Position numbers and translations under genes: made by a program. Below the pieces are notes generated by a model, which was given only the letters and a program-made list of their open reading frames with translations, made no database searches and had not been told where the DNA came from. Source: an uncultured virus (IMG/VR IMGVR_UViG_3300029267_004181) (Duplodnaviria; Heunggongvirae; Uroviricota; Caudoviricetes). From it: DNA of 20,000 nt. Location: IMG/VR virus record IMGVR_UViG_3300029267_004181; one strand, given 5' to 3'. Within the stretch, counting starts at the first letter, position 1; each line of letters starts with the position of its first letter. Of the stretch, positions 431 to 20,000 are shown one piece after another.

Positions 431-442
431 ATCGGCCTTATT

Positions 443-937: not shown

Positions 938-962
938 TCTAACACACCCCTTCTTGTCCTCT

Positions 963-1325: not shown

Positions 1326-2180
1326 TCACACTATTCCGTAACCGTTCTGGAGATTTAGATTCAGCTTCGTCCTCTCCATCCAGGTCTTCCATTCCAAGAG
1401 ATACCTGTCACCCGTCTCTTCGTATTGAGCAGATCTGTTGGTATCATCCAACGTCAAACCGCCGCTAACTTGGTATCTAAGCTCGTTCCTGCGATACCAA
1501 TTAGCCGCCGCTTTGTACAAGTACCCTATCGTGCCCAACAGCCAGGGGCGACGATACGGAAAAGTCGCAATCGTGTATCTGTACGGTGGCACCGGCGGAG
1601 GAGTATCATTCCACTCTTCCACCGGCATGCGCAGAGCAGCCAAAATCTGCGCATCAGAAAACTCAACATCATCCAAAACCTGGTTGGCATCAGGGCTAGT
1701 ATCCCAGAGAAACATGCGAATCTCCGGAATCGTGGGCGTAGCTGACGCATCCTCAACGTTCAACCTGGGCGTAATGAACAGGTAAAACGGCATGGAAAAG
1801 ATCGTTACGCCGTCCCTTATAACATTCCATTCGGCCAACCAGACACCCGGCGTAGCAGTCTGATCGGGCGTCAGTGTGACTGACACCTCGCCTGCCTCCG
1901 CATTCGTAATAGTAGCAGCTAATTCCAGCTCAAGCGTAGCTGCTTTACGCGACTCCTTCAGCACGAACTCAACCGTCAAAGGGCTGGTCGACTCACTGCT
2001 GGAACTGGAACTTGAGCTGGATTCCTCGTCTGCCAAGGAATACGTTGCACCCTGACAGGTACGCAACGTTGCTGTAACAGCAGCCTGAGTCTCTTGCGAC
2101 ACCGTAGCAACTGCGATTTCCCGCAGGTTGACCCCGGCTACACGGGACCGACCATAGCTTTCGTCACTACACCAACTCAT
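1326..2180 (-). CDS. Putative neck/head-tail adaptor protein with N-terminal Ig/BppU-like domain
   Basis: The N-terminal half is Ig-like (AGEVSVTLTPDQTATPGVWLAEWNV). The helical C-terminal half (EIRMFLWD...EFSDAQILAAL...YRRNELRYQVSGGLTLD) resembles head-completion adaptors. It lies downstream of the capsid genes and has a Ser9 insert. Confidence 0.6.
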   Translation of the reverse strand: MSWCSDESYGRSRVAGVNLREIAVATVSQETQAAVTATLRTCQGATYSLADEESSSSSSSSSESTSPLTVEFVLKESRKAATLELELAATITNAEAGEVSVTLTPDQTATPGVWLAEWNVIRDGVTIFSMPFYLFITPRLNVEDASATPTIPEIRMFLWDTSPDANQVLDDVEFSDAQILAALRMPVEEWNDTPPPVPPYRYTIATFPYRRPWLLGTIGYLYKAAANWYRRNELRYQVSGGLTLDDTNRSAQYEETGDRYLLEWKTWMERTKLNLNLQNGYGIV

Positions 2181-2182
2181 GC

Positions 2183-2875
2183 TTACCCGCTTGAACTGGA
2201 GCTGCTGGAACTGGTGGAACTGGAGTCCTCAGCCGGCCTGTCATTCGAAGGAGTACCCTGACGGTCAGGCGCGTCGCTAATAGTCAAGCCACGCGCGTAT
2301 ACAACCTGCACAGCCACATCAGGACCGGGATCCGCGGCTAGATTATCCTGCACTACAAACTCTAGACGCTGGCCGTACCGAAGCTGGAAACAAGAAGAGC
2401 ACCTGGACATCTTTATCGGGTACAGCGTGTGATTGAGAACACCACCCAAACCCTGCAGCAACAGCCTGTTAGTCTGCAGCGCCTGTAATACAGGATCACT
2501 AAACATGACGAAAGGCACATGATCAGTCAACGTAAGAGAAACAGGATGCAAAGGATAAATGTACGTGCCTTCTATTCGGTCCCAGACGCGAATGATGAAG
2601 CCGTTGGTCAGACCATCCGTGCTCTCGCCCCAGCCGCCTCCTGCCAGCGCGCCCTGACAAACGACAAACACGCTCATCACATCCAGCATGTACAGCTCTG
2701 ACCTGGAATCTTCCACACCTATCCAAAAAATGCCTCTGTCGTCCGGCGAATATGCCGATGCGGCCATATTGGTTTCGCCAGCTCCGTTACCATCAATAGA
2801 GAAAAAATACGTACCCCACTGAGTAGACGGAGTCAGATGATACCCCTCACTAACTGCCGAATTAGACCACTGCAT
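2183..2875 (-). CDS. Hypothetical virion protein with C-terminal poly-Ser-Gly tail
   Basis: 230-aa ORF tightly packed between its neighbours, with a beta-rich core (GLTNGFIIRV; GQRLEFVVQDNL). It ends DSSSTSSSSSSSSG. Confidence 0.75.
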   Translation of the reverse strand: MQWSNSAVSEGYHLTPSTQWGTYFFSIDGNGAGETNMAASAYSPDDRGIFWIGVEDSRSELYMLDVMSVFVVCQGALAGGGWGESTDGLTNGFIIRVWDRIEGTYIYPLHPVSLTLTDHVPFVMFSDPVLQALQTNRLLLQGLGGVLNHTLYPIKMSRCSSCFQLRYGQRLEFVVQDNLAADPGPDVAVQVVYARGLTISDAPDRQGTPSNDRPAEDSSSTSSSSSSSSG

Positions 2876-2879
2876 CTAT

Positions 2880-3347
2880 TTACTCCTTTCGCCGCTCAAT
2901 CGGAATCAGGTGTTCTTCGATGCGCCTTAGCGTCTTGTCTATCTGCGTGAGGCGCGTTTCGATCCTGGCAATCCGATCGCTGGTACTCATGGTAACCTGG
3001 GTTATCTGCTTTTGAAGATCAATGACCCGCGCATCCATGCGATCAAAATCTTCCCGCAGATCCGAATGTGACACTTCCAGCGTATGCAGCCGCCCTTCTG
3101 TCTGCGCATACCGCACCTCTGACTCTTTGACTTGAGCATTGAGTACTTCCCGGACAGAAGCCGCGTCATTACGTATAACCGCCGCCAGCTGGAGCAGGAT
3201 CATAATGAGCACAGCCGCCGCACTTCCGCCTAAAACAGGTTTAGGAATACGGTAAGTCACACCAGACAAAGCAGGCACCACCTGCGAATCAGCTGCATCT
3301 GCCATATTTACTGACTCCGTTTCGGACACTAATCCATCGCTGTCCAT
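2880..3347 (-). CDS. Single-pass membrane protein with coiled coil (possible holin, spanin-like or XhlA-like lysis accessory)
   Basis: TM segment VLGGSAAAVLIMILLQLAAVI followed by a heptad-patterned region (IARIETRLTQIDKTLRRIEEHL). Function is inferred only. Confidence 0.6.
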   Translation of the reverse strand: MDSDGLVSETESVNMADAADSQVVPALSGVTYRIPKPVLGGSAAAVLIMILLQLAAVIRNDAASVREVLNAQVKESEVRYAQTEGRLHTLEVSHSDLREDFDRMDARVIDLQKQITQVTMSTSDRIARIETRLTQIDKTLRRIEEHLIPIERRKE

Positions 3348-3379
3348 GATTTTAACTCACTATCGCCTGGAAAACCAGA

Positions 3380-3715
3380 TCACTTCAGCAAGACATCTTT
3401 CGCTTTCCATTTACCACTCGAAAAAATCTTGCCGTCACTGACACGTCGTAGCTTACCTTCCTGTACGAAGTACTCGTGCGAAGGCTCGTCGAACTGCCTT
3501 GGCAACTCGTCAGGCACCTCTACATCCTTGTAAAACTGCTCCTTTGACACATCACCCCATTCGACGTGCGTTGGAATCCACGTCGATACTCCTCTTATCG
3601 TTACAAGCTCTACCTCTCGCACAAGCGTATACCTACGACCATCTGGCGATTCGATTGCGATGCTGGCCAAACTAGTGCCTACAACCGCGCCGCGCTTATC
3701 AGTCAGCACATCCAT
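3380..3715 (-). CDS. Hypothetical protein, possible fibre assembly chaperone
   Basis: 111 aa, starting immediately after the fibre gene stop. This position is typical of fibre chaperones. Confidence 0.6.
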   Translation of the reverse strand: MDVLTDKRGAVVGTSLASIAIESPDGRRYTLVREVELVTIRGVSTWIPTHVEWGDVSKEQFYKDVEVPDELPRQFDEPSHEYFVQEGKLRRVSDGKIFSSGKWKAKDVLLK

Positions 3716-3716
3716 G

Positions 3717-6700
3717 TTAGTACACGACCCCGTATACAGCCGTAGTATATGCGGCAGTATCTCCAGTTACACTGCCGCGCTTTATAGCCGCACCGTAAAC
3801 ACTCTTTGCGCCGTAAGTATAATTACTGCCCGAACTACCATAGCAAATGATGGAAGCTCCCGCGGCACACACACCAATACCATTATCCTTAACAGTGCAT
3901 TGGTATATGTGCAAGTTGCTATCTCTGCAAACACTTACACCTATAGCATTGTAACGAATAGTGCACTGAGAGAAGGTCAAGCCGCTCCACACATGATGAT
4001 TAGTAAAAGTTGGACACAGCCATATGCCGCCACCGTGTTCGGCGTTATTGCCTATCGAGCCTTCGATCGACACGCCTTCGATTATAACATTGCATCTGTG
4101 AGGCAGCATCGGACGGAGCGTGCCCTGAACGTTGCGTGTCGCCCTGGCAGTGCCGGGACTGCCGGGACCCTCTGCCACACCGGCAGCGTTGGTTACCTCT
4201 ACCCAATCCGCGCCGTCATTGACAGCTGTTACTTTAGCATATACGTCATTAGCAGCATTGGTACAGCTACCCCTGTCTACAAACAGATACGACTGATTCG
4301 CTAACACGTTACTCAGATCAGGGCTGCCGGCGAAGGTGTAGCGCATTGTAGTGCCGGCGGGATTGGTAATCTGATCAATATCCAGCTCCGCACCGCCAAC
4401 GGCCAACGTGGAAAACCTGACGTTGGTAGGCGTGCTGGTATCTCCTGTAACCAAGACCTTGCCCGTACCTAGTGTAATCGGCGCGCCTATAAGATCCCAC
4501 CCCCTAACAGCCATGAGATCATATAAACCATTACCACAATCAATAGTCACGGTCACACCGTTACCTATAATGTAGCCGCGAATCTGCTCCCAAGCGTGTT
4601 CTAACGAGAACCAGGGATTGCCGGATGTACCGTCACCCGTCGAGTCGTCGCCGGACGGATCTATATAGTACGTGATGTCGGAATCTATGACTACGCTGTG
4701 TGTGGTCCAGGCAGGTGTAGTACCTCCCATCAAAATAGCGCCTGACGCACCAGCAGATAGTCTCACCCAAACGTCGCCGTTGTGATAAAGCGTATCCCCT
4801 GCCGTCCCACACTGCGATACGGCAATGTCTTCGACCCTTCTGTGCACCCATAAATCGCTCTCGTCGTCATAGATCAGCATGTAAGGCGAAGAACAGTCGC
4901 CCGGTGACGAGCTGGACGACATGGAAATCTCTACATCAGTCAGGTCTCCTAGCGATAAGGTGATACTAAGCGAATCGACATACTGCTTGTTTACCAGATC
5001 GTACGCTTCCACCGGCGGCTGTGTAGATGCCGGCACTGTCGTAAATGTCTTCTTGCCGGAGATCGTGCTAGCACCAGCAGCCAACACGAAATACGTCTCT
5101 GCAACCCCGGCATCAGGAACGACGACAACCCTGTCTACGCCAGCGTATTCGCCCTCGATACAATAAAAATGTGCCCTCCTGATAACCTCGGCTTGCTCTG
5201 ACTCGGATGAAGATGAAGATGAAGATGAAGATGAAGACGAACCGGCAGGAGGATAAACACGGATTCTGAATATGCTGGCTATCAGATCCTGAAAGTCTTT
5301 GGTGCCCTCCACAACCTGATCAAAATCTGCCAGAACCACGAAGAAATCTTGTAAATCAGCAGATGTCCAGATGCCAGTATCAGAATCCCACACCAGCACC
5401 TTCTCAAGACTGTCGGCAGGATCGTAATACACATCAGTCAGATCTTCCAGCGTAGTAACACCGGACGTAATCAGACCATCTACATACTCCTTCGTCACCA
5501 GATCCGTGGTGGCATACGGTGTATGTCCTTCACGCACTTCAGGCAAATACTCGAATACGAAATTCTCTCCTTCCTCTACTCGTACCTGATTGCGCCAGCA
5601 ATGCTCAAATGTGCAGCTATCCTCTATCACTACATCCGCGCTGTCGTGACGGACAGCTGCGCCTGCCTCACCAACCGGAGGCTTGCAGACGCCTTTGAAC
5701 TTCCAACCACGCAAGCGCAAATACACGGGCATTTTCGTATCGAAATGCCATAGCGTATGCACGCTTTTCGTTATATAGGCCTGAACAGTGGGACCAGCCG
5801 ACGCATACAAAGACGAAGAGGAAGAGGAAGACGAAGAGGAAGATACAGCCTCACACTCCTCTACCGGCCAGGTAGATCCTTCATACGTTTCTATATCGAT
5901 AGTTTTTTCTACGTCGTTTACAGCCTTGACCAGCACATCTGTCACGTTGTTAGCAGTAACAGGGCAGCCTTCACAAGTGAACAAGCTCTGGCCGGCTGTC
6001 ACAGAAGACAGATCAGGTAGGTATTGCGGCTCGGCGCCAGGATCCTCGGACGATGAAGAAGACCCTGGAAGCTCCTCGACAGCCAAATGATATCGAAGCA
6101 GATTACCCGCCGGCTTTTCGATCAAAGTCACCCGTACAGGATTACCGTCATTCACCATCGCGCATATAACGGCATTGTCGCTATTAGATTCGTCTCCCTC
6201 TATCACGACACATCCGGTTCCCATCGTCGCAGGAACCCTGTCTACCGTCCAGGTAGTATCAAGATTCCACTGCCGAGGCACAATAGTGTCGGGCGCTAGA
6301 GGACTGACCCGAGCCGATTTTACATACGCCGTAGCTTCATTCTGAATAATCCGATCGGCCAGCACGTAAAACGCCTCGGTAATGGTAGCATGATTGCCGT
6401 AGCCGCCTGCCCCGTCACCGCCGTCGTGTATCCACTGCTGGTTAATAAGAGAGTTAGACGCAATAGACCGCGGAAATGGAATAGCCAGGCCTGGTAGCCT
6501 GAACTGAATCCGGTTCTCCTCCATAATAAAGCCGACCATCTGTACCAGCTCAGTTCCGCTATCCGGCAGCGTCGTAGACCACTTGCCCCAAGTATCCATA
6601 GATGTGTATATGACGCCGGTAGTAGCACCGCTGGTGTTTACTTCCAACTCAGCAGCCATAGCTATCCAGCCGGACGAGCCGTGATCTATATCATCCAACA

Positions 6701-8264
6701 ACACGTGAGTAGCAGGATAATAACTGGGAACGTGCGGATAAATGAACGAGCCGCCGGCGTAGATAACCAGATCACCTTTGACTAGATTAAAACCTGACGT
6801 ATTGGTAACCCAGACAGCGCCTGTCGTATGAGGGAAATAATTAGTCCAAAGCTCGTTGTCACCATCAAAGACAAGCGCCATACCCTCCAATACACAGCCA
6901 GCCGGGTACGAAGGCTCGGACGGCTGAGCCGCCGGCACTTTTATGCACAACGCAACGTCCGACAGATTAGCCAGCTGCGCTACATAATCAACGTAGGCCT
7001 TGCGGACCGCATGATTATCATAGATAGGATTCTCCGCCGGCAGCAGCGGAATCTGACCAAACTGCCATTGCCCGGATATGTTGAAATCGCCGGACGACAA
7101 CAAGATCCAGGCGTCCTCGCCGGGATCGGGAATGGTCAGGGTATGATCGTCACAAAAATGGCCGGCAACAATCGTCACGTAATGCGCAGGATTGGCCGCT
7201 GCGTATGCGCTGGAACTGGACGAGCTGGAGCTGGAAAGCTGACAAGGCAGCGTACGAATGACCAAGCCATCAGCCAAGGTAACAGGCTGCAAGAACGTTT
7301 TGTCACCGTCAATCTCCTGCTCGCCTTCCAACATAACCAGAAAATCGCCGGGATCTCGGTTGGTCCAACACTCGCCATTGAACCACAACACGTCTCCTGC
7401 AGACGACCCCCAAGCGTAGTCGCTGCTGGAGCTGGACGACCCTTCCGACAAACATACATCCAATAACTCACCCAGATAATTCAGAATGTGGTTGTCCACA
7501 TAGCGCTTGGTCGCTACGTGTGTCGGGGCGGTTATGGCGCTGGTGACCTCTGGCGTGGCCGTGAAGGTCCAATCCCCGTTAATGGTGGTGGAACCCTCGG
7601 TCAGCACAAAAGATGCGTCTGCGCCCGCGTCAGGCACGCTGTACGCCCTGTTAGCTGCTGGCACGCCTGTGATCGTAAACCATTTGGTGCCGTCATTGGA
7701 TAAGGCCAGGCTGGGGTATACCTTTACACCTGCCGTGAACGTCTGGACAGCAGACCAGGTTTTGCTGCCTGTTACCGTCTGGACCGTAGCCAGCGTAACA
7801 AAGTACGCGTCTCCGTCAATGTTGACGAAATTGGCACCGTTGTGCCGTAGAATGTGGCCGGCTACAGCGCCGCCTACCGCCACATCCGTCAGATCATCCA
7901 GGCTCAACGCGGCAACCAGGCCATCTACATAAGCCTTCCTGGTAGCTTCGTTGGCATTGACAGGATCAGCAGCCGGCAAGACAGGAATAGACAGAAACGT
8001 CTTTATCCCATCTATATTCTGATTTACCGCCCCCGTAACAACCAGAAAGGTCTGTGGCTGCTGATTTATCCAAGTGCCGCTGGCTGCATGATAGCGCAGA
8101 ATATCGTAGTCGGCTTCACCAGCCAGGTTTACGTCAATAAGATCGCCGAGATCATAAAACAGGTCGCCCCCGCCGCCGCCGCCTACAACAGACTCGCCGG
8201 CCCTCTGCCTGCGATGCAGGCGAGTCGCCATGTCATATACGAGATTCCAGCTATCGTATGCCAT
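3717..8264 (-). CDS. Large mosaic fibre/spike protein (~1515 aa) with shaft repeats and pectin-lyase-like beta-helix modules
   Basis: Recurrent fibre motifs: LxxLxDV (6 copies), KxYVD (5 copies) and IxGxKTF-like. The C-terminal region has YYIDPSGDDSTGDGTSGNPW and beta-helix-type repeats (IRYNAIGVSV; VKDNGIGVCA). The ATG at 8264 is preferred over the TTG at 8315, which would run through a terminator-like hairpin. Confidence 0.8.
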   Translation of the reverse strand: MAYDSWNLVYDMATRLHRRQRAGESVVGGGGGGDLFYDLGDLIDVNLAGEADYDILRYHAASGTWINQQPQTFLVVTGAVNQNIDGIKTFLSIPVLPAADPVNANEATRKAYVDGLVAALSLDDLTDVAVGGAVAGHILRHNGANFVNIDGDAYFVTLATVQTVTGSKTWSAVQTFTAGVKVYPSLALSNDGTKWFTITGVPAANRAYSVPDAGADASFVLTEGSTTINGDWTFTATPEVTSAITAPTHVATKRYVDNHILNYLGELLDVCLSEGSSSSSSDYAWGSSAGDVLWFNGECWTNRDPGDFLVMLEGEQEIDGDKTFLQPVTLADGLVIRTLPCQLSSSSSSSSSAYAAANPAHYVTIVAGHFCDDHTLTIPDPGEDAWILLSSGDFNISGQWQFGQIPLLPAENPIYDNHAVRKAYVDYVAQLANLSDVALCIKVPAAQPSEPSYPAGCVLEGMALVFDGDNELWTNYFPHTTGAVWVTNTSGFNLVKGDLVIYAGGSFIYPHVPSYYPATHVLLDDIDHGSSGWIAMAAELEVNTSGATTGVIYTSMDTWGKWSTTLPDSGTELVQMVGFIMEENRIQFRLPGLAIPFPRSIASNSLINQQWIHDGGDGAGGYGNHATITEAFYVLADRIIQNEATAYVKSARVSPLAPDTIVPRQWNLDTTWTVDRVPATMGTGCVVIEGDESNSDNAVICAMVNDGNPVRVTLIEKPAGNLLRYHLAVEELPGSSSSSEDPGAEPQYLPDLSSVTAGQSLFTCEGCPVTANNVTDVLVKAVNDVEKTIDIETYEGSTWPVEECEAVSSSSSSSSSSSLYASAGPTVQAYITKSVHTLWHFDTKMPVYLRLRGWKFKGVCKPPVGEAGAAVRHDSADVVIEDSCTFEHCWRNQVRVEEGENFVFEYLPEVREGHTPYATTDLVTKEYVDGLITSGVTTLEDLTDVYYDPADSLEKVLVWDSDTGIWTSADLQDFFVVLADFDQVVEGTKDFQDLIASIFRIRVYPPAGSSSSSSSSSSSSESEQAEVIRRAHFYCIEGEYAGVDRVVVVPDAGVAETYFVLAAGASTISGKKTFTTVPASTQPPVEAYDLVNKQYVDSLSITLSLGDLTDVEISMSSSSSPGDCSSPYMLIYDDESDLWVHRRVEDIAVSQCGTAGDTLYHNGDVWVRLSAGASGAILMGGTTPAWTTHSVVIDSDITYYIDPSGDDSTGDGTSGNPWFSLEHAWEQIRGYIIGNGVTVTIDCGNGLYDLMAVRGWDLIGAPITLGTGKVLVTGDTSTPTNVRFSTLAVGGAELDIDQITNPAGTTMRYTFAGSPDLSNVLANQSYLFVDRGSCTNAANDVYAKVTAVNDGADWVEVTNAAGVAEGPGSPGTARATRNVQGTLRPMLPHRCNVIIEGVSIEGSIGNNAEHGGGIWLCPTFTNHHVWSGLTFSQCTIRYNAIGVSVCRDSNLHIYQCTVKDNGIGVCAAGASIICYGSSGSNYTYGAKSVYGAAIKRGSVTGDTAAYTTAVYGVVY

Positions 8265-8270
8265 AGGTAG

Positions 8271-8306
8271 AAAAAGCCGGGGCAGGACAGAGCCTGCCGC
8301 CGGCTC
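8271..8306 (-). terminator. Putative intrinsic terminator after the capsid gene block
   Basis: The minus strand reads AGCCGG-C-GGCAGG [CTCTGT] CCTGCC-CCGGCT-TTTT: a 12-bp GC-rich stem with one bulge and a short U tract, in an intergenic position. Confidence 0.7.
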
Positions 8307-8339
8307 GTGGATCAAAAGTCAGGAAAAGGACGACTCTGT

Positions 8340-8573
8340 CTACTGAGCTTCCTCTTCGACAGCGGCCTGGAGAATGCCGGGATGCTGCTGAAGAAGTTCC
8401 AGCGCAGTTTCATACGCTTCCTCGTCAGCCTCGCTTGCACTCTTGGTGTGCGAACAGAGCGCATTAGCAGCCTTCACAACCTCCGTAGCCTGCTGCTCCG
8501 TCTTCAACTCAACGCCCAGAGACGCAAGCTTGTCGAAAAAGGCCGCTTGCCTTATCTCGTCGTAAATACTCAA
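8340..8573 (-). CDS. Small helical hypothetical protein with K-x-A motifs
   Basis: TTG start with SD AGGGAG, 77 aa, containing DKLA, VKAA and TKSA. Confidence 0.75.
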   Translation of the reverse strand: MSIYDEIRQAAFFDKLASLGVELKTEQQATEVVKAANALCSHTKSASEADEEAYETALELLQQHPGILQAAVEEEAQ

Positions 8574-8588
8574 CTGATTTTCTCCCTA

Positions 8589-9071
8589 TTAGCCGCTGCT
8601 AGAGCTAGAGCTAGAACTAGAACTGAAAACAGCCTCGTCTTCCTGCTCCTGCTCGTCCTCGCCTCCAGCAGCTGAACTCGAACTGGAACTGGAGCTCTCT
8701 GCGGCCCCAGCAGCAGCAGCTGAACTCGAACTGGAACTGGAGCTCTCAGCAGCAGCAGCAGCTGAACTCGAACTGGAACTGGAGCTCTCAGCAGCAGCAG
8801 CAGCTGAACTCGAACTGGAACTGGAACTGGAGCCTGCTTCCTCCGCTTCCTCCGCTTCCGTCAGAGGATAGGGCAGCTCCGCTGTAATGGAGCCGTCGTT
8901 CATGTCGGCGATAAAAGCTGCAAGCTGTTCTTCCTCCAGACGTCCCAAAAGGTCGCCGTTGACCTCGTATGAGACGCCAGCAGCTAGCCGGCGGCCATAA
9001 GGCGGAATCCAGTCGAAGTACACTGGCGTGGCACCAGCATTTGTAACCGTTGTAGTCAGCACATCAGACAT
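8589..9071 (-). CDS. Putative capsid-associated protein, paralog B, with Ser/Ala repeat tail
   Basis: The N-terminal ~70 aa align with 9078-9335 (VTNA..VYFDWI.PYGR.L..G...VNG.LLGRLEE.QLA...D.NDGS). The long tail has ESSSSSSSSAAAAA repeats and ends S10-G. Confidence 0.8.
   Translation of the reverse strand: MSDVLTTTVTNAGATPVYFDWIPPYGRRLAAGVSYEVNGDLLGRLEEEQLAAFIADMNDGSITAELPYPLTEAEEAEEAGSSSSSSSSSAAAAAESSSSSSSSAAAAAESSSSSSSSAAAAGAAESSSSSSSSAAGGEDEQEQEDEAVFSSSSSSSSSSG
8671..8832. repeat. In-frame 42-bp tandem repeat (4 copies) encoding ESSSSSSSSAAAAA
   Basis: The unit gctgaactcgaactggaactgga starts at 8671, 8719, 8761 and 8803 (spacing 48, 42, 42). Confidence 0.95.
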
Positions 9072-9077
9072 TGGTAA

Positions 9078-9335
9078 CTACCCCGAAGAAGACGAAGACG
9101 AGGACGAGGACTCTTCAACGGTGTTCAGCGTATACGGAAAAACAACCGTCACGCTGCCGTCATTGATATCCTCGAGCATTTCAGCCAGTTGGTCCTCTTC
9201 CAGACGACCAAGCAGGCAGCCATTAACGCTGACTTCCTGCCCGTCTGTCAGCTTTCGGCCATAAGGCAGGATCCAGTCAAAATAGACTGTCCCGCCAGTG
9301 GCATTCGTAACGTCCGTGGTCAACTGATACGGCAT
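9078..9335 (-). CDS. Putative capsid-associated protein, paralog A, with poly-Ser-Gly tail
   Basis: SD AAGGAGGT, directly after the capsid gene, 85 aa, ending EESSSSSSSSSG. Confidence 0.8.
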   Translation of the reverse strand: MPYQLTTDVTNATGGTVYFDWILPYGRKLTDGQEVSVNGCLLGRLEEDQLAEMLEDINDGSVTVVFPYTLNTVEESSSSSSSSSG

Positions 9336-9383: not shown

Positions 9384-10307
9384 CTAGCTGAAGGTCGCCT
9401 TGCACACACCGGCCACGTTGCCGATCGTGAAGCCCAGAGTAGTATAAGCGCCGAACGCGACCTTCGTCGGCTCGGTCTTAACCCACATGACAGGCTCCTG
9501 CAGAACGTAATGGCGGCCCAGATAGTCAGGTCCGGCAAACATGAACATCTGGTTATCAGGAATAATATCCCGCTTGATGCTCATAAGCCAGCGATACCCG
9601 AACATATCGCCCAGAGCCTTTTGGCCCTCGCGAAGCTGAGCTTCCGAAATGTTGTCCGATGTGTCAGACGGCTTCCACTTCAGGATATCCTTGGCAAACT
9701 TAACGTTCACCAGACACGTAGCAGGCTCCAGTCGGTTCGGCGTGTCGTTCATGGTCTTCAACGCTTCCATGACCGAACTGCGGGTGATCCCGCCGGAAAT
9801 GTTAGCGTGCTGAACTACGCCCGTGGCCGTGACCGTAGAACCGGCAGTACCGACGATGGTATTACAGGCCTGAATGAACCTGGTATCCTTCGTCTCGCCG
9901 ATGTCCTTAACGCCCTGATCCAGATAATGCTGACGAATGTCGTACACGTGGGTACGAAGCTTGTCAACATCCGCCCACATAGCAGGCGTCTGAATCCGGT
10001 AGAAGTAGACGGCAAACCGGCTGGTTTGCAGCTGCAAGGCCATCTGTCCGCCCAGGAAGGGCACAGCCGCAGCGCCCGGCGAATCCGGCAAACGCTGCTC
10101 GATGCGAACAGGCGTCTCCGTATCCAGCTGCGGATGCAAATCGTTGTTTCCGATTTGCACCGGCTCGATGATCCCGTCCAGGAAGGAATCTTCCTTCAGG
10201 GAGTTCTTCAGAGCGCTGGACAGAACATCCTGCGCCTCCTTCACCTGGCCCGTGTCTATGAGATTGACGATCCGGTCGTGAATCGCGTCTCGCATAGGTG
10301 TAAGCAT
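9384..10307 (-). CDS. Major capsid protein (HK97 fold, encapsulin/Linocin-like size)
   Basis: 307 aa with SD AGGAG, in the order protease-scaffold-decoration-this gene. It shows an HK97-like pattern: backbone helix DIRQHYLDQGVKDIGETKDTRFIQAC, A-domain RLEPATCLVNVKFAKDIL, and C-terminal GFTIGNVAGVCKATF. Confidence 0.85.
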   Translation of the reverse strand: MLTPMRDAIHDRIVNLIDTGQVKEAQDVLSSALKNSLKEDSFLDGIIEPVQIGNNDLHPQLDTETPVRIEQRLPDSPGAAAVPFLGGQMALQLQTSRFAVYFYRIQTPAMWADVDKLRTHVYDIRQHYLDQGVKDIGETKDTRFIQACNTIVGTAGSTVTATGVVQHANISGGITRSSVMEALKTMNDTPNRLEPATCLVNVKFAKDILKWKPSDTSDNISEAQLREGQKALGDMFGYRWLMSIKRDIIPDNQMFMFAGPDYLGRHYVLQEPVMWVKTEPTKVAFGAYTTLGFTIGNVAGVCKATFS

Positions 10308-10355: not shown

Positions 10356-10844
10356 TTAGTGCGAGTGCTTAGGCAAGAAGCAGGAATAGACCGACAAGAA
10401 CGTATTGCCCTGCAGCGATTGCGTTGAAGCCTCGGAAATTATGCCCACCACGTCGTGCGTCGCCGGCCATGTGGCGTCTTCAAGTACGCCGGTCGTAGTG
10501 TTCCCGGTAACCTTCTGATTTGGCGCGACTGTACAATCGACAGCCGAATACTCAGTCGTCCAGAACTCCATCGGCCACAACACGGACAGGCCGAGCACCT
10601 GGTCTAGAGCAATGATGTCCGATTGCACCGCGTTCTCAACAACGATAAACGGCAACTCGTTGCCGTTATTCATGCCGACCACGAACTCGCCCGAAGCATT
10701 CATGTACACAATGCGTCCAGCGATGTAATCAGTGATTTCACCACTCTCAGGATCGGCTGTCTTGTACAACATAAGCGTGCTTATGTTAGAAAAGCCGCGC
10801 TTGACGTCCAGGATGTGCGTATGCAGCGTAGGCGCAGTAGTCAT
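10356..10844 (-). CDS. Putative head decoration/cement protein
   Basis: 162 aa, beta-rich (AGRIVYMNASGEFVVG; DVVGII), SD AGGAG, immediately upstream of the MCP as lambda gpD-like genes are. Confidence 0.6.
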   Translation of the reverse strand: MTTAPTLHTHILDVKRGFSNISTLMLYKTADPESGEITDYIAGRIVYMNASGEFVVGMNNGNELPFIVVENAVQSDIIALDQVLGLSVLWPMEFWTTEYSAVDCTVAPNQKVTGNTTTGVLEDATWPATHDVVGIISEASTQSLQGNTFLSVYSCFLPKHSH

Positions 10845-10855
10845 CCTTTTCTCCT

Positions 10856-11230
10856 TTAGCTAATCAGGCCCAACTGTCGAGCCATGACCCGATCGGTAGA
10901 ATCCAGTCCATCATTGGCGACGTTATCGTCACCAAAGCTGCCAGACTTGCCCAAAACTTCAGGCGGCATCTTGGCCACATATTCCGCTACCTTCGTCAGG
11001 TTTTCCAGCACGGCCGCCGGATCGCTGGCATATTTGTTAACGGCTTCCTCTCGATACGCGCCGTCCAACATTCCCGCCGCGATGCAAGCGTCCACCGCCT
11101 TCACAGCAGACTCGCGTGTCGCCGTCACCGCCGCATCCGCCTGCTTCGCCTGACTATTTCTGAGCTCGCGGTTGAGAGTGAGATACTCTTCCAGGACCCG
11201 AGCCTGCGCATCAGTAAACGTGATAGGCAT
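10856..11230 (-). CDS. Small helical scaffold-like protein
   Basis: 124 aa, Ala-rich and helical, SD AGGAG, containing AKQA, NKYA and TKVA. Confidence 0.7.
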   Translation of the reverse strand: MPITFTDAQARVLEEYLTLNRELRNSQAKQADAAVTATRESAVKAVDACIAAGMLDGAYREEAVNKYASDPAAVLENLTKVAEYVAKMPPEVLGKSGSFGDDNVANDGLDSTDRVMARQLGLIS

Positions 11231-11244
11231 CGCCTGTTCTCCTA

Positions 11245-12678
11245 TTAACTCCGAAGCCGAATCAGATCCAACGCAGCCGAGACCTGGCCAGTCTGAAAAC
11301 CTCGGGCTATGTCCTGATCGAGCGCCCGCGACAAATGCTCGCGAATCAACTCGTTCGACGCTTCCTTGCTGATCCCGCGCTCAGCGTACTCCTTGGCAGC
11401 CTTGATGGCGTAGCCGCGCATGAGAGCCTCGGCTTGCTTGACAGTAGGAAGAGGCGCATTCGCAGCTACCTGCAACTCCTCTTCCGTAGGCTCCTCTTCC
11501 GTAGGCCCCTCAGCAGGCGCTTCTGCGGGCGCTTCTGCCGGCGAGCCAGCAGCCTGAGCAGCTTCCTGCGCAGCATCAACAATAGCCTTGGCAACGACTT
11601 CCTCTACCTCGGATAGTGGCACGCCCTGATCCACCTTGTCAACCACGTCAGCAATCGCCTGATCAGCCAAGGTGTCAACATCCGCACCAGCCTCAGCACC
11701 AGCCAGCGCTTCAGGAGCAGCGCCGCCTTCCGGCAAGGCACCAGATTCCATCGCTCCGGCTATCTCGTCAGCAATGGCGGCTTCTTCAGGAGACAAAGGA
11801 GCACCAGACTCGGCCTTCTGAGAAATATCAGCGACTACCTGATCCGCACCAGTCGTGGTCTCACCCCCGCCCTCGGCCATCGATATGGCCTCCTCAATGG
11901 CCGCAGCCACCGGCTCCTCTTCAGGCGCCAGGGGCTCGCCTGCAACCATCTTGCCTGCCACATCCTGAATCAAGCTGTCTACCGCGGCATCAGCACCAGG
12001 CGCTTCACCAGCCAACATCGCAGCATCATCCTGACCCTGCTTGATAGCCTGCGCAACCTTGTCCAGAACAGACGCCTGCAACCGCGCTACCTCGGCAGTC
12101 GCTTCAGCCAGCTTATACCCGGCTTCCTCCTGCTCCTTGTTGGCTGCAACCGCGGCCTTGATACTCTCAAGATCGATAACGCTCTCTGTCTTCTCGGGCT
12201 CGGCTTTCTGCTTGTCAGCCTTCGCAGCCTTGACCTCGGCCGTCGACTCGTCAGGCTCCTGATCACGCGCAGCCTTCAAAACGTTGAGCAGCTCGGTCTC
12301 CAAAGCCGCAGCCTTGTGATACCCGTCCGTATTCTTGAACTTCTCCTGCTCGTCAGGCAGAGGAACATTCTCGTCATTCACAGGCTTCTCAGGCGGCGTG
12401 TCCTCGTCACGAACCTTCGGGTCCTTGGCGGCTTGCTGGGCTTTCTGCTTGGCAGCAGCAGCCGCAGCATCCGTCTCTGCGATGTTCTCAACACTCTTGT
12501 CGCCTACATCGTCCCGCACCTGCTGCGTTTGATCACGAGAATCGGCGCCTTCCGTATGCGTCTTGTTCTCAGCCGCCAGTTCCGCATCGCCAACATCAGC
12601 TGATTTGCGGGCCGACTTAATCTCTTCCAAAAGAGTGTTCATCGACTCGACGAGTTCGCTATTCGCGTTCACAGACAT
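11245..12678 (-). CDS. Putative capsid scaffolding protein (acidic, Ala/Glu-rich)
   Basis: 477 aa, very acidic and low complexity, SD AAGGAGG, located between the protease and the MCP, with many K-x-A motifs and internal repeats. Confidence 0.7.
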   Translation of the reverse strand: MSVNANSELVESMNTLLEEIKSARKSADVGDAELAAENKTHTEGADSRDQTQQVRDDVGDKSVENIAETDAAAAAAKQKAQQAAKDPKVRDEDTPPEKPVNDENVPLPDEQEKFKNTDGYHKAAALETELLNVLKAARDQEPDESTAEVKAAKADKQKAEPEKTESVIDLESIKAAVAANKEQEEAGYKLAEATAEVARLQASVLDKVAQAIKQGQDDAAMLAGEAPGADAAVDSLIQDVAGKMVAGEPLAPEEEPVAAAIEEAISMAEGGGETTTGADQVVADISQKAESGAPLSPEEAAIADEIAGAMESGALPEGGAAPEALAGAEAGADVDTLADQAIADVVDKVDQGVPLSEVEEVVAKAIVDAAQEAAQAAGSPAEAPAEAPAEGPTEEEPTEEELQVAANAPLPTVKQAEALMRGYAIKAAKEYAERGISKEASNELIREHLSRALDQDIARGFQTGQVSAALDLIRLRS

Positions 12679-12733
12679 TTACATGTCCTCCTTCGTTCCC
12701 TTGGACTGGTTATAAACCTCGTCCTGTTGGCAG

Positions 12734-12763
12734 ATTATATCAGAGGTGTTGCTGCCCAATCAA
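12734..12763 (-). promoter_or_regulatory. Putative sigma70-type promoter for the scaffold-capsid genes
   Basis: The minus strand has TTGATT-N18-TATAAT with an extended -10 (TGa-TATAAT), about 55 nt upstream of the scaffold ATG. Confidence 0.65.
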
Positions 12764-14038
12764 GCGCAAATCCTCAGAAAATCCACGTTTTTCACAAACA
12801 CCCATCAATGCCGTGGTATAAGCAGCATAATGATCCGCTAACAGCCGAGCAGCATTCGACGCTGTCTTGGCTACAACTACTCGCCGCTTATACGCCCTGT
12901 CTCCGTCTCCACCGGTGATCACACGCGCACGTATGCGCCACCGTCGACCGTCCATGCCTAATCCAAACGGCCCAAGCAACTGGGACACAAGCAACCCTAA
13001 CCCCGGCAAATCAGGACCAGGCATCCCGCGATAAGTGCTTACCAGCTTATCGTTTACATCGGAACAAGGTCCCGGCAACATGTCTACCGCATCCCGTATA
13101 ACGCCGTCCTGCACATTCATATCGGTACCAGACAAACCGCTCACCAGCTGTATAAAGGCAGGCAACGATAAACTTATGCGCATATTGTGTAATTTATCGA
13201 ACACACGCGCCGGTGGATAATGAGACAAGGCATCTATAACCTGTGGCTTCTCGTTGGTAGTAAACGGCAACTCGGCCTCGTTGTCTATCTTCTTTACAAT
13301 CGACCCGCGAGAAATTTTGCTAGCGCTAGCAATTTCCTCGGAAGGCTTGTTTGCCTCTTCCTTTTCCACCTTGTCAGCCACCTTCGCAAAGGCGAAGGCT
13401 ATACGACTGGCAGGTCTAACTACAATGCTCTGATCGAAGAACGTGGGCTGGGTATTGATAGCGTAAATCTGCTGCCCGTCATCTGCCACCTTGCCCATGT
13501 GATCGCGCAGATGCTCACAATAAACGCTTCGGTTCTTGGCCTTGTTGCCACACCAACTGCAAATGTCGAACGGCACGCGACAAGACATAGAGGTGGCTAC
13601 AGGCTCACCTGACGCCACCTTGGCCAGCTCATCCTGGCAAATATCCTTGTCCCAGCCAACAATCAACTCGACCCTGTGCATACGATCGTTGTGCGTAGAA
13701 AACGGCACAATGCCGCAGCTTTTAGCTTCGTCATCATTGTCATGATGCTTGTAACACTTGGCGTGCTTGGTGAAGGTGTTGTGATACTTTTTGTTCACAG
13801 CTTCAGCGAAGTAATCGCCGCGTCGATTGCAGCCGTAGTACTCACCGTCACCTAAAGCCACCAGGTGTACGTATGAATATCTGTCGTCTGGCTGGCTGTT
13901 AGCAAATTCCTCAGCAGCACTAGCAAACTTCATCAACCAGGTTCTGCTGGGAGCCGGGCCTGACATCTCAACCAGCTGACAAGATAGCCCGGATTTACCA
14001 GGGAAATCATCCACCGTCTTGATGAAAGGCTTAGCCAT
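12740..14038 (-). CDS. Prohead (capsid maturation) protease with Zn-ribbon-like motif
   Basis: Start moved to the ATG at 14038 (MAKPFI), next to the upstream stop. Motifs are NRRGDYF, YKHHDN (candidate catalytic His) and TSMSC (candidate catalytic Ser), followed by CSWC...CEH and FFDQSIVVRPA, as in HK97/S78-like proteases. Confidence 0.8.
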   Translation of the reverse strand: MAKPFIKTVDDFPGKSGLSCQLVEMSGPAPSRTWLMKFASAAEEFANSQPDDRYSYVHLVALGDGEYYGCNRRGDYFAEAVNKKYHNTFTKHAKCYKHHDNDDEAKSCGIVPFSTHNDRMHRVELIVGWDKDICQDELAKVASGEPVATSMSCRVPFDICSWCGNKAKNRSVYCEHLRDHMGKVADDGQQIYAINTQPTFFDQSIVVRPASRIAFAFAKVADKVEKEEANKPSEEIASASKISRGSIVKKIDNEAELPFTTNEKPQVIDALSHYPPARVFDKLHNMRISLSLPAFIQLVSGLSGTDMNVQDGVIRDAVDMLPGPCSDVNDKLVSTYRGMPGPDLPGLGLLVSQLLGPFGLGMDGRRWRIRARVITGGDGDRAYKRRVVVAKTASNAARLLADHYAAYTTALMGVCEKRGFSEDLRLIGQQHL

Positions 14039-14039
14039 G

Positions 14040-14894
14040 CTATTGACCCCGCCGCATTCGACGCAGCTCTTCCGCGATCGCCATGCGTTCTGCTCTGATG
14101 CGTTCGATGCGCTTTTGCAGATCTTTTGCAGCCCCTTCACGCGTGCGTAGCAGCGCCGCAGCGCTTGCTACACCACGACCAACACCGTATAGTTTTGCTC
14201 CCTTGCTGGCAGTATGCGCAATCGAGGTCATACGACCGGCTCTCCGGGTGAGAGCTAGCGGCGAAGTCGGAACGGCTCTGGTCAAACGAGAGCCGAGAGC
14301 GTTGAGCAATTTTCCTATCACAGGTGTGGACGGCGCCTGCTGCTGTAATTTGCCGCCTTGATGTGCAAGCCAATACAACAGCTTCTCGGATCCCCCAGAC
14401 GTTGCGCGGCCCAGGCCTGCGCCAAGAGCAAAGCCACCAATCGAGTGTGCCAGATGTTTTATAGCTCTGGGATAATCAGAATAGATTCCAGGCTCGCCTT
14501 CATACAACTGCTGAAAATCCTGGGTAAGCCCGCGCTCACGCTGCTTCAGGAATTCATGCTGCTGAGCCAGCTGCTCGCCTGCGGTCGTAGCCAAAGGAAT
14601 CCCGCCTACCATCTTGCGTATCTCTGGAGCTGCGACCGCGGCGGCCCCTCCTACAGGCGCACCAACAATAGCGCCGGTCACTACGTCAGGCAGAATCTTG
14701 CGCTTGCGAATCAGCGCGTTCAACAGGCCTGCCGTTGCACCTACACCAGTTCCTATGCCGGCACCGGCCATCAGCTGCTGCGAGGGCGTCATCTCCCAGA
14801 ACTTGGATGTCAGCTCAGACAAATTCTGAGCTCGCTTTTCCAGACCGCAAACAGCCATGAAATCATCAGAAAGGATGGATTGGGTCAAAGACAT
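14040..14894 (-). CDS. Glycine-zipper membrane-type protein (putative internal/ejection protein)
   Basis: EKRA is followed by AGAGIGTGVGATAGLL, GAIVGAPVGGAAA and GGFALGAGLG, with a basic C-terminus. Confidence 0.7.
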   Translation of the reverse strand: MSLTQSILSDDFMAVCGLEKRAQNLSELTSKFWEMTPSQQLMAGAGIGTGVGATAGLLNALIRKRKILPDVVTGAIVGAPVGGAAAVAAPEIRKMVGGIPLATTAGEQLAQQHEFLKQRERGLTQDFQQLYEGEPGIYSDYPRAIKHLAHSIGGFALGAGLGRATSGGSEKLLYWLAHQGGKLQQQAPSTPVIGKLLNALGSRLTRAVPTSPLALTRRAGRMTSIAHTASKGAKLYGVGRGVASAAALLRTREGAAKDLQKRIERIRAERMAIAEELRRMRRGQ

Positions 14895-14895
14895 C

Positions 14896-16215
14896 CTAAG
14901 CAGGCTCCTTTTCTCTGCCTACGTTTATGAGTTTTTGCAACTGCTGCTTCGCCGGCGAAGGCGCCGTGATCTCTGCAATCTGCTTCAGCTCGTGTGGCGC
15001 AAGTACCTCGCCTTGCAGCTTACGACGCAGCAGATCCGTCATCAGAGGCTCGTTGGTAGAAGCCAATGGCGCAATCGTTGCAATCGCATTGTACGCCTGC
15101 GCCACTTCGTCAGGGTCATAACCAGAGATCACCGGATCCGAGCTCATCAGGTGCGTAAGAATGGCTTTCGTTTGAGCCATCCTCATAGTATCTCGCACTT
15201 CCGGCTTGAACAGCGAAAGCAGATATTTCTTTTCAGCAGCGTGTGCGCCAGGTAGGGCCTGTGCCAAGGCTCTGAGACCTATGACCGTTCCTGTTCCTGC
15301 CTGGCCCGCCTTAAAAAGCGACGTATGGTCCTCATCCGCTGCTTTTGTCTCCTGCTCCAGGCTGACATATGCTTCCCGGAACTCTGGCAACGCTTGCTCG
15401 GCTCGATCCGCTTTCAGATTAGCAGCTGCGTATTTTGCCAAGGCACAGGCAACCTTGCCTATATGAGAAAACGGCGAACGATCAATGTTGATAGATCTGT
15501 CTCCAGATCTGCAGGCACCGGCGCGTTTGATCTGCCCGCTGGTTACTTCGCCCATACAGCCTGCAACCGCTGTTGCCGCCTTGGTTCCTATAAAACCAAA
15601 CTTAGCGGTTACCGCCCTTTCTGCCGGCTCAAACTGATCAGGATGCGCGTCGAAATAAGCGGCAGCCTTGCCTGCTTCATCAATGGCTGCGAACTTGGCC
15701 GCAACAGCATCATGCCTTGCAGCCTTCACTTCAGCCATCAGATCCTTTGCCCTGGCGCGAATGCTGGCAACCTTCATAACCAGCGACCGCTCCTCCGACA
15801 CCGGAGCAAAGCTGGAATGAAAGTGCTCGCGTGAGTTGACCAGGGCAGCATCAAGCGATGTCGCATGCTTCTCTGCCTCAGCAGCCCGCGCCTCCTGCTT
15901 GTGCTGCTCTTCCTTGTGGACAGCTGGATACAAGCTGGCCACCACTTCGGAATAATCTGCCAGCTCAAACGCGCCAGCCCGCTTCTCCACATCCGGTACG
16001 GACAACTGAGCGCGTGTGCGAGATGCGTTGAACGCGCCTACCAGCAGACGAACAAAGGGCAACGATAACTGCCTGTCTGAAGCAACCTTTACAATCGCAC
16101 CATTGGGCACCATGCCTTTGGACACATGATCCACAACTTCGGTCATGGCACCCAAAAGCATCTGCTTCGATGCGTCCGTCATAGGCGTAAACTTATTAGC
16201 CATCTTTACTCTCAC
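14896..16215 (-). CDS. Hypothetical helical protein, K-x-A rich (putative head-internal protein)
   Basis: 439 aa, Ala-rich, containing VKVA, EKRA, EKHA, MKVA, VKAA, AKFA, GKAA, TKAA, IKRA, GKVA and AKYA. Alternative start is the ATG at 16203. Confidence 0.75.
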   Translation of the reverse strand: MRVKMANKFTPMTDASKQMLLGAMTEVVDHVSKGMVPNGAIVKVASDRQLSLPFVRLLVGAFNASRTRAQLSVPDVEKRAGAFELADYSEVVASLYPAVHKEEQHKQEARAAEAEKHATSLDAALVNSREHFHSSFAPVSEERSLVMKVASIRARAKDLMAEVKAARHDAVAAKFAAIDEAGKAAAYFDAHPDQFEPAERAVTAKFGFIGTKAATAVAGCMGEVTSGQIKRAGACRSGDRSINIDRSPFSHIGKVACALAKYAAANLKADRAEQALPEFREAYVSLEQETKAADEDHTSLFKAGQAGTGTVIGLRALAQALPGAHAAEKKYLLSLFKPEVRDTMRMAQTKAILTHLMSSDPVISGYDPDEVAQAYNAIATIAPLASTNEPLMTDLLRRKLQGEVLAPHELKQIAEITAPSPAKQQLQKLINVGREKEPA

Positions 16216-17032
16216 TCTCCGCCTCTGGAGCCTTTTCAGTAGTATCGAGCACGCGAAGGCCCCCTGTTTCCTGAAACACCTCCTGGCTGGCAGGCAGGAA
16301 ACGAGGCTGCATTTCCTCTACGCGCACATCCCTTATCTCCTCGCGTGTAGGCAGATGCAACGTGTGCTCCACCTGCATCGTATGCTTCACGTTGGCCTTG
16401 CGGAAACTCATGTCCGTCACCGGGCAGGTCAGCCGCAAAGCCAATGACCGCTTCAGATCCAAATTCGCAATCTCATTGCGAATAAAGTTCTCTGCATCCG
16501 CAGGCATCTGGCCGTGTGAAAGCGTAGCCCAAAGCACCGGCTCGCCGCCATAAAACGCTGCCAACTTCAGCATATCCGCCTCAGTCAGTTCGTTAAACAG
16601 CGGAGATGGAACGATGAAAGCATGAAAGTATATGCGGTTAGCTGCGTAATCCCGCACATTGAAAAACAGGCGCTCGAACATCGAGATAACCTCGGTATCC
16701 GTTACCTGTATATGATACGCGATCTCGTCACAGCCAACGTCAGCCAGCAGCATGGCTTCGACCAACCAACGTATCCGCTTGTTAGGACCGAACTGCAGGA
16801 TTCTGGCGCCGTGTACGTCCGGCATATCAGCAACCAGACGAGACAGCGCCCGCTTGCTTTTGATCTTGCGGTAGCGTCTGATATACCTACGCGCCCTGAC
16901 CACTTCATCCTTGGTTATAGCATGCCTGCCTATGGCACGCCTCCAACCCCAGTCAGGTGGCCGGAACACGGTGGACGATCCTACATCAAGATCGTCCTGA
17001 GTGATATTAGTCAGAGTACTCACCTTCGTCAT
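16196..17032 (-). CDS. Hypothetical protein with possible helix-turn-helix
   Basis: 278 aa with a basic N-terminus (RPPDWGWRRA...RARRYIRRYRKIK) and an HTH-like stretch EAMLLADVGCDEIAYHIQVTDTEVISMFERLFF. It overlaps both neighbouring genes. Confidence 0.65.
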   Translation of the reverse strand: MTKVSTLTNITQDDLDVGSSTVFRPPDWGWRRAIGRHAITKDEVVRARRYIRRYRKIKSKRALSRLVADMPDVHGARILQFGPNKRIRWLVEAMLLADVGCDEIAYHIQVTDTEVISMFERLFFNVRDYAANRIYFHAFIVPSPLFNELTEADMLKLAAFYGGEPVLWATLSHGQMPADAENFIRNEIANLDLKRSLALRLTCPVTDMSFRKANVKHTMQVEHTLHLPTREEIRDVRVEEMQPRFLPASQEVFQETGGLRVLDTTEKAPEAESESKDG

Positions 17033-19834: not shown

Positions 19835-19844
19835 GCTGCCCACC

Positions 19845-20000
19845 TCACATGGGCGGACCAGCAAACGAATACGCAGGCGCAGCTTGTAAATACTGCCTGC
19901 CAAACGAGTCCCAAAACCCTTTTGGTTTTACAGCCGCCGCACGGCGAGCCTGCTCTATCATGCTTCTATCCAGCTTCTGATGAACCGGTGAACGTTCCCT
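19845..20000 (-). CDS. Partial (3' end) hypothetical protein
   Basis: My translation is open from the window edge: RERSPVHQKLDRSMIEQARRAAAVKPKGFWDSFGRQYLQAAPAYSFAGPPM*. The TGA overlaps the SD of the next gene. Confidence 0.5.
   Translation of the reverse strand, partial: RERSPVHQKLDRSMIEQARRAAAVKPKGFWDSFGRQYLQAAPAYSFAGPPM

Follow-up and report, generated by a model that had tools for sequence, protein, structure and literature searches.

Virion glycosylation has been demonstrated for a few mycobacteriophages, according to the overview in PMC12363180, and in Che8, Corndog and Myrna the capsid and tail-tube proteins are glycosylated, with phage-encoded glycosyltransferases proposed as the responsible enzymes (Freeman et al. 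2023, as cited there). The TibC/Aah enzymes (TIGR04414) are described in PMC4358343 as cytoplasmic GT-B proteins related to family GT9, which use an ADP-heptose donor and serine acceptors to modify surface proteins densely; TibC heptosylates Ser and not Thr, and the enzymes feature a four-cysteine iron finger (339/342/358/370 in TibC) and dodecamer assembly. Homopolymeric serine runs are also found in the carbohydrases of Saccharophagus degradans and Cellvibrio japonicus, where they separate domains (PMC2386152). For Salmonella phage Arash (OQ632216), the major capsid protein (MCP) and gp233 have been detected in particles by mass spectrometry (PMC10585845). The literature covered on poly-serine phage structural proteins, GT9 with virion glycan, phage heptosyltransferases and SPINDLY with poly-serine, in which few subscription papers are represented, holds nothing on a system combining such elements.

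The window analyzed here, the whole 20,000-nucleotide stretch from an uncultured virus, belongs to a long-branch member of an Arash-like group of 180-225 kb phages. Its MCP is homologous to that of Arash (25.5% identity) and is 36-41% identical to those of uncultured 180-225 kb relatives. Since the window MCP sits on a very long branch (3.7 in a quick tree), the gene content of this phage may differ from that of its relatives. Arash differs in that the 41 kb surrounding its MCP gene contain no Ser run, and has no GT9-GT2, GT2, GT41 or HldE match.

Serine runs of at least five residues number 14 in the window, with lengths of 5-12 amino acids, and are confined to five of the 21 genes, all downstream of the MCP gene (Table 1). 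These are the five proteins in which an earlier note on this DNA had located them, and the positions agree throughout. Within-protein shuffles (n=2000) gave a mean of 0.21 such runs and a maximum of 3. All 14 fall within the 3003 residues encoded downstream of the MCP, and none within the 3476 residues of the MCP and upstream genes; Ser runs reach a length of 3 at most in the MCP and its nine upstream genes, which bears out the claim that the MCP, protease, scaffold and upstream proteins lack comparable runs. Homopolymer runs of at least five non-Ser residues in the same genes amount to only four (three Ala, one Gly).

Table 1. Features of the window and their serine runs
Feature	Coordinates	Strand	Remarks
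284-aa neck/adaptor-like protein	1326..2180	-	S9 at 1995-2021 (aa 54-62)
230-aa orphan protein	2183..2875	-	C-terminus SSST-S8-G-stop; S8 2189-2212, SSST-S8 2189-2224
1532-aa fibre-like protein	3717..8315	-	repeated shaft modules; six Ser runs: S6 7422-7439, S9 7209-7235, S5 6048-6062, S11 5811-5843, S12 5205-5240, S5 4905-4919
77-aa post-capsid protein	8340..8573	-	no Ser run; internal control
160-aa paralog of 85-aa protein	8589..9071	-	S9, S8, S8, S8, S10 between 8595 and 8831
85-aa post-capsid protein	9078..9335	-	S9 9084-9110; C-terminal S9-G tail
Major capsid protein (MCP)	9384..10307	-	no Ser run
Head-assembly block	10356..19127	-	162, 124, 477 (scaffold-like), 466 (protease), 284, 439, 278 and 706 aa; maximum Ser run 3; negative control

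The five proteins had all been predicted to be outer-virion components, and the support for this varies among them. In the 284-aa protein, the N-terminal part (aa 20-140) is a BppU-N-like beta-sandwich (3uh8, Z 9.7, rmsd 2.4, 97 residues aligned) and the helical C-terminal half is homologous to Arash gp233 (hhalign probability 99.1, E 5.7e-19). The fibre matches phrog_16641 (tail fiber) over aa 97-135 (E 2.6e-17); no relative was found for its first part, and the protein database gave four short matches only. A predicted outer-virion location has reasonable support for two of the five, namely the neck-like protein, through its gp233 homology and loop placement, and the fibre, through the PHROG match and its repeats. 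The 85-aa and 160-aa proteins (62% identity over 66 aa) may be virion proteins as well, given their gene position and the conservation of the 85-aa family across the phage group; the 85-aa model is a small alpha/beta domain with a disordered tail (aa 71-82, pLDDT <50), and fold searches with it returned no nameable fold (best Z 4.0). For the 230-aa protein, gene position by itself suggests a place in the virion: a search of 1.84 billion representatives recovered the protein itself and one 26-aa match (E 5e-4), with no usable feature match and structure matches at TM <0.5 by query.

Models and alignments place the runs in loops or at C-termini and never between domains, except that two fibre runs (aa 752 and 825) have no placement. 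The S9 of the 284-aa protein is a loop within the beta-sandwich (model pLDDT 83.5; mean of 63 over aa 51-60), repeated modules of the fibre hold four of its runs, each inserted at the same turn (two of the six LxDLxDV modules and two of three copies of a second module), and three runs are C-terminal, ending as S(n)-G-stop. In the 160-aa protein, four tandem S8-9/Ala units precede the final S10-G-stop. The neck-protein loop is Ser-rich at the same site in many relatives, with widely varying lengths, and so is the tail of the small post-capsid protein, which often finishes in short Ser strings.

The earlier note had held that the tracts are not copies of one DNA repeat and had taken this as a sign of selection at the protein level. 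The statement on repeats holds in part only. TCN and AGY codons are mixed in 10 of the 14 runs, but within the 160-aa gene a tandem array of 42-48 bp units contains the four internal runs, and the tracts consist of dicodon (hexamer) repeats: codons are identical at lag 2 in 36 of 71 cases (18.0 expected) and at lag 1 in 5 of 82 (20.6 expected), values that none of 10000 shuffles reached, three duplicated copies being excluded. The codon argument is therefore weaker than stated, yet the mixing of codons and the dominance of Ser among the runs remain in its favor. A WSN-repeat DNA pattern was also tried as a counter of Ser runs and was dropped as too noisy.

The hexamer repeats and the tandem array are what would be expected if the runs were unmodified, hydrophilic, low-complexity loops and tails, expanded by slippage wherever the particle tolerates insertions, with Ser favored as in bacterial polyserine linkers. 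Such linkers are known from the Saccharophagus degradans enzymes (PMC2386152), and tract lengths differ widely among relatives, which is also consistent with this explanation. However, known linkers separate domains, whereas the window runs are short, occupy intradomain loops or free C-termini, and belong to a family trait that tracks an enzyme in relatives (vide infra). The tracts of relatives show no dicodon periodicity (lag 2 identity in 29 of 134 cases against 31.8 expected), so slippage fails to explain the family trait. Unmodified loops are accordingly regarded as unlikely, if still deserving of some weight.

The flanks of the runs had been described as often acidic, in the form E-S(n)-E. 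That literal form occurs once among the 14, but an acidic residue lies within three positions of 11, and no Lys or Arg lies within six positions of any. These flanks, together with the presence of the DNA in sediment and seawater sequencing runs, would suit tracts phosphorylated by a phage or host kinase into a polyanionic coat binding minerals or cations. The kinase search, limited to the Hanks type, found PF00069 over the cut-off in none of 31 relatives and an HRDLK-type motif in none of 14 genomes; of the phosphorylation that the earlier note had also proposed, the version with a phage Hanks kinase is thus unsupported, and phosphorylation in general is considered very improbable.

A glycosyltransferase alongside the tracts was likewise expected, and none was found within the window; its proteins also gave no match to those of 77 GT9 loci. 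In relatives, a GT9(-GT2) gene is present in 21 of 41 records, including 10 of the 18 that are at least 90% complete, and PF01075 (GT9) exceeds its gathering cut-off in 18 of 31. The relatives' enzyme gives Atlas feature matches of 0.97-0.98, mostly to viral GT9 clusters, and matches PDB 1psw (E 3.4e-4). Across 11 GT9-positive genomes, 27 of the 30 runs of at least five Ser fall within the morphogenesis block, to which 37% of residues belong (p 2e-9); runs of other residues show no such enrichment (27 of 99). G020 entered the analysis with its first-pass ORFs.

The GT9 gene is missing from the Arash group and from two clades, one comprising G001, G002, G024, G025 and G026 and the other G003, G017 and G039. 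In G017, the two cassette genes that flank it elsewhere are retained in uninterrupted sequence, and the GT9 gene is absent. G003 and G017 have no run of four Ser from the first head gene to the end of the tail block, and at the orthologous sites their tails are Pro/acidic and their loops poor in Ser, which also argues against unmodified loops. The maximum number of Ser per 12 residues, averaged over six orthologous proteins, is 3.4-7.8 in the 11 GT9-positive genomes and 3.0-4.0 in four negative ones (p 0.006, uncorrected for kinship). Contrasts come from two GT9-negative lineages, both devoid of the loops, and one outgroup only. HldE-like genes occur in 10 of 31 records and in none of the GT9-negative clades. 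The association is imperfect: G004, G011, G013 and G020 are GT9-positive without a run of at least five Ser, a point in favor of unmodified loops, and of the 36 GT9 loci left after dereplication, 19 lack such a run within 10 kb.

In relatives, the presence or absence of such Ser loops follows that of a single glycosyltransferase, so the runs are probably sites of sugar attachment. The preferred reading, judged from sequence to be somewhat probable, is that the runs are acceptors for virion O-glycosylation, probably with heptose, by a phage-encoded GT9-GT2 enzyme. On this view, particle proteins of the group carry surface loops and tails that are rich in Ser and flanked by acidic residues, and the window runs would be enlarged versions of these; a GT9-GT2 enzyme from the tail-fibre block, presumably also encoded by the window phage, would O-glycosylate them in the host cytoplasm. 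The GT9 half may prime Ser with a heptose-type sugar supplied through HldE of host or phage origin, and extension may fall to GT2 or to further transferases of the phage, resulting in a putative glycan coat over the neck, capsid surface and fibres; in the window lineage, hexamer slippage would have lengthened the acceptor tracts. The O-glycosylation proposed in the earlier note thus gains from the co-variation at orthologous sites and the concentration of runs in the morphogenesis block of relatives; for the window phage itself the argument is an indirect one, with the enzyme and the sugar as candidates.

Glycosylation by another enzyme (a GT41/OGT-like, Maf-like, GT2 or GT4 phage transferase, or a host O-glycosylation system) is suggested by the many transferases in relatives and the distance of the window lineage from them. 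GT41 genes lie between the MCP and neck genes in G001 and G002, with one more in G025, and G008, G012, G021 and G023 encode a Maf/MptE-like protein. However, G001 and G002 have no run of at least five Ser in modelled genes, the neck loop of G025 is Pro-rich, and the Ser-rich G005, G006 and G016 lack the Maf-like cluster. GT41 as a partner of the tracts was rejected because all three of the 41 records that carry it belong to the Ser-poor clade, and general transferase load was rejected as a correlate because GT2 is equally common in Ser-poor genomes (four matches in G003). Neither GT41, GT2 alone nor Hanks kinases follow the loops in relatives. Glycosylation by another enzyme is considered improbable.

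As in the TibC/Aah enzymes, there are invariant cysteines near the C-terminus of the GT9 half of the GT9-GT2 enzyme, five in the relatives' alignment (A2; 262, 263, 269, 284 and 299), but their spacing differs from that of the iron finger. The best scores of the GT9 half are to LPS heptosyltransferases, at values far under the cut-offs, and it reaches at most 21 bits with TIGR04414 (cut-off 200; none of 31 records over), so that protein priming by the GT9 half is a proposal. The phage enzyme also carries a fused GT2 part, and poly-Ser loops take the place of beta-helix motifs as its candidate acceptors. The mycobacteriophage system is similar in that phage-encoded glycosyltransferases are proposed to act on particle proteins; its targets are the capsid and tail tube, whereas here the MCP has no run, the candidates, predicted from sequence, are the neck, fibre and small post-capsid proteins, and a GT9-GT2 fusion is proposed as the enzyme.

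A broader and more tentative possibility is that, in widespread 180-225 kb environmental phages, a phage-specific GT9-GT2 enzyme primes and extends glycans on portable poly-Ser tags, insertable in whichever loop or C-terminus is exposed, with coat density tuned by hexamer slippage. If so, the window phage would stand at the extreme, as it carries 14 long tags in 7 kb, and enzyme and tag together would make up a compact tool for O-glycosylation in the cytoplasm. Phage virion glycosylation is already known, and the candidate system is a variation on it; if the Ser loops and GT9-GT2 do form a system, virion glycosylation would extend to a large group of aquatic phages, with a role unrelated to antibodies, perhaps in adsorption, stability or the evasion of surface defences or grazers.

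Five MAG contigs with MCP relatives indicate no consistent host. No tract-length variants were seen in contigs, but rare variants are lost on assembly into contigs, and two of the repeats interrupt them. The DNA of the window is present in sediment and seawater sequencing runs, and the tracts in a second assembly (L004) are identical to those of the window.

Every gene in the window lies on the minus strand, and five of them contain a total of 14 Ser runs of 5-12 residues: one each in the 284-aa, 230-aa and 85-aa proteins, six in the 1532-aa fibre and five in the 160-aa protein. The feature is real; within-protein shuffles yield a mean of 0.21 runs (maximum of 3 in 2000). The genes and run coordinates agree with those of the earlier note, as does the absence of comparable runs from the MCP and nine upstream genes, where the longest Ser run is 3 residues. 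Three of the proteins end in S(n)-G-stop. Asp or Glu is found within 3 residues of 11 of the 14 runs, and none has Lys or Arg within 6 residues; the literal E-S(n)-E form given earlier occurs only once.

TCN and AGY codons are mixed in 10 of the 14 runs, in keeping with the earlier claim that the tracts are not copies of one DNA repeat. That claim holds only in part: the tracts are dicodon repeats (with three duplicated copies excluded, codon identity is 36/71 at lag 2 vs 18.0 expected, and 5/82 at lag 1 vs 20.6 expected), and the 160-aa gene contains a 42-48 bp tandem array. Given these repeats and the array, tract length in the window has probably been raised by slippage, even if the residue was chosen by selection.

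The 284-aa protein gives a good predicted model (pLDDT 83.5), in which the S9 run forms a loop within an N-terminal beta-sandwich resembling TP901-1 BppU-N (Z 9.7, rmsd 2.4, 97 aligned). Its helical half is homologous (prob 99.1) to gp233 of Salmonella phage Arash, a member of the Arash particle proteome as given in a permissive list of 116 proteins. The "adaptor" label comes from one weak Foldseek match (8gtd_M, E 7.4e-4). The 1532-aa protein has a tail-fibre match in PHROG, and four of its six Ser runs are inserted at equivalent turns of repeated modules, other copies of which have no insertion. The 85-aa and 160-aa proteins belong to a family that adjoins the MCP gene throughout the group and for which fold searches gave no named fold; the tail of the 85-aa protein is disordered in the predicted model. 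The 230-aa protein is an orphan, with no usable relative in sequence or feature searches.

Relatives (G numbers, genome records; L numbers, contigs or loci) were examined with our own gene calls in 14 nearly whole genomes (at most 4.4 kb of an end excluded), the morphogenesis region of G003 and part of G017. Runs of 5 or more occur on at least three proteins in G005, G006, G012 and G016; the modelled genes of G022 contain one, and those of G001, G002, G004, G011, G013 and G020 none. A cruder gene model gave further ORFs that are probably shadow frames (one for G001, one for G011 and four for G013), and a genuine S12 protein of G006 is missing from the refined one. Many relatives share a Ser-rich neck loop at the orthologous site, to a graded degree; in the clade of L005, L008, L090 and L091, represented by fragmentary records, Ser tails are mostly missing, and the loop is missing in L005, L006, L090 and L091. 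Across 11 GT9-positive genomes, 27 of 30 Ser runs fall inside the morphogenesis block (37% of residues), and runs of other residues show no enrichment there (27/99); G022, in which a boundary gene is missing, was left out of this count. Ser/Thr tracts are found in G008, G021 and G023, which also encode a Maf/MptE-like protein and possibly have a second glycosylation system. Three of the four mucin-like tract loci in these genomes directly adjoin GT2 genes.

The candidate modifying enzyme is a GT9-GT2 fusion of ~650 aa. Its gene closes the tail-fibre block, next to that of a small protein whose ends are usually rich in Ser. The fusion is present in 21/41 records and 10/18 near-complete ones; G020 has GT9 only, and the genes of G018 and G040 are stop-interrupted. 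The fusion is missing from the Arash group, from a clade (G001, G002, G024, G025 and G026) with a Pro-rich neck loop where seen, and from a clade (G003, G017 and G039) that nests among positives. G017 has lost the enzyme and kept both flanking genes, and loops in G003 and G017 are Ser-poor at every orthologous site examined. G022 also has no fusion, in a record that ends within the tail block; G010 and G015 are incomplete. Scored for Ser at orthologous sites, 11 positives range over 3.4-7.8 and four negatives over 3.0-4.0, two ranges that overlap (p 0.006, kinship-uncorrected), and the informative contrasts are two GT9-negative lineages and one outgroup. HldE-like genes occur in 10/31 records, namely nine GT9-positive ones and G022. 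The co-occurrence of a candidate enzyme with poly-Ser, a check suggested earlier, is seen in relatives for GT9-GT2 and not for GT41, GT2 alone or Hanks kinases.

We lean towards the tracts being acceptors for O-glycosylation: a putative phage GT9-GT2 enzyme would modify them in the cytoplasm, and hexamer slippage would have lengthened them in this phage. No GT9-GT2 gene of the window phage was found among 120 listed of 246 matches or in 77 GT9 loci. The sugar is probably heptose, and the coat may serve adsorption, stability or evasion of surface defences or grazers. The proposed way of working would resemble mycobacteriophage virion glycosylation as excerpted from PMC12363180, and the proposed chemistry would resemble that of TibC (excerpt of PMC4358343), although the relatives' enzyme misses the BAHT cut-off. 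Judging by sequence, the GT9 half could instead act on a glycan or host surface, because its likeness to LPS heptosyltransferases at least equals that to TibC. Among the papers listed by literature searches, none dealt with poly-Ser proteins of phage particles or with a GT9-GT2 enzyme.

Unmodified loops are a less probable explanation. In its favour, four GT9-positive genomes have no run of 5, as is the case within 10 kb of 19 of 36 dereplicated GT9 loci; against it, polyserine linkers, in the excerpt of PMC2386152, differ from the window runs in position. Modification by another transferase is improbable: GT41 beside the MCP gene was rejected (3/41 records, in a Ser-poor clade), as was GT2 (22/31, regardless of Ser loops), and none of 31 records reaches the BAHT cut-off. 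Phosphorylation, the other modification proposed earlier, is very improbable, with no Hanks kinase above cut-off in 31 records of relatives.

Coordinates of additional features in the window and its relatives
Locus	Feature	Observation
Window 431-962	182-aa Gly/Ala-rich gene (443-991)	Missing in L004
Window 3717-8315	Fibre between 85-aa family gene and neck gene	Slot variable across phages: GT2 (G004, G005, G011, G012, G013); GT2 and large fibre-like genes (G003); GT41 (G001, G002)
Window 10856-19127, minus strand	Lys-x-Ala enriched in head-assembly proteins	Observed vs expected: 439-aa, 13 vs 5.6; 706-aa, 9 vs 3.3; protease, 7 vs 2.9; 477-aa, 11 vs 6.5
Window 19216-19845	Variable site in 233-aa gene	Minority form without ~580 bases; alternative ends near 19834-19845
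G008:91774-94119	Mucin-like Ser/Thr tract	At most 34 residues
G021:126843-127796	Mucin-like Ser/Thr tract	At most 34 residues
G023:65572-71670	Mucin-like Ser/Thr tract	At most 34 residues
G023:78188-79156	Mucin-like Ser/Thr tract	At most 34 residues
L001:14010-15923	TPR + GT41 (OGT/SPINDLY-like)	Between MCP and neck genes; phage without Ser loops
L002:14124-17814	TPR + GT41 (OGT/SPINDLY-like)	Between MCP and neck genes; phage without Ser loops
G025:166405-167484	TPR + GT41 (OGT/SPINDLY-like)	Phage without Ser loops
L160:13834-15030 (G016)	RuBisCO-large-like gene (PF00016, E 4.5e-35)	Within phage glycan gene cluster
L226:12138-13793 (G006)	TROVE/Ro60-like gene	In phage

The window MCP compares at 25.5% with that of Arash and at 36-41% with those of uncultured 180-225 kb phages, and a quick tree places the window, unsurely, as a lone long branch. 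L004, a second assembly of the window phage, extends ~600 bp past the window's left end. The Gly/Ala-rich segment near that end is taken as a minority insertion variant, since it is missing in L004 and the contig with it has a depth of ~6 vs 22-34 on the flank, in four runs.
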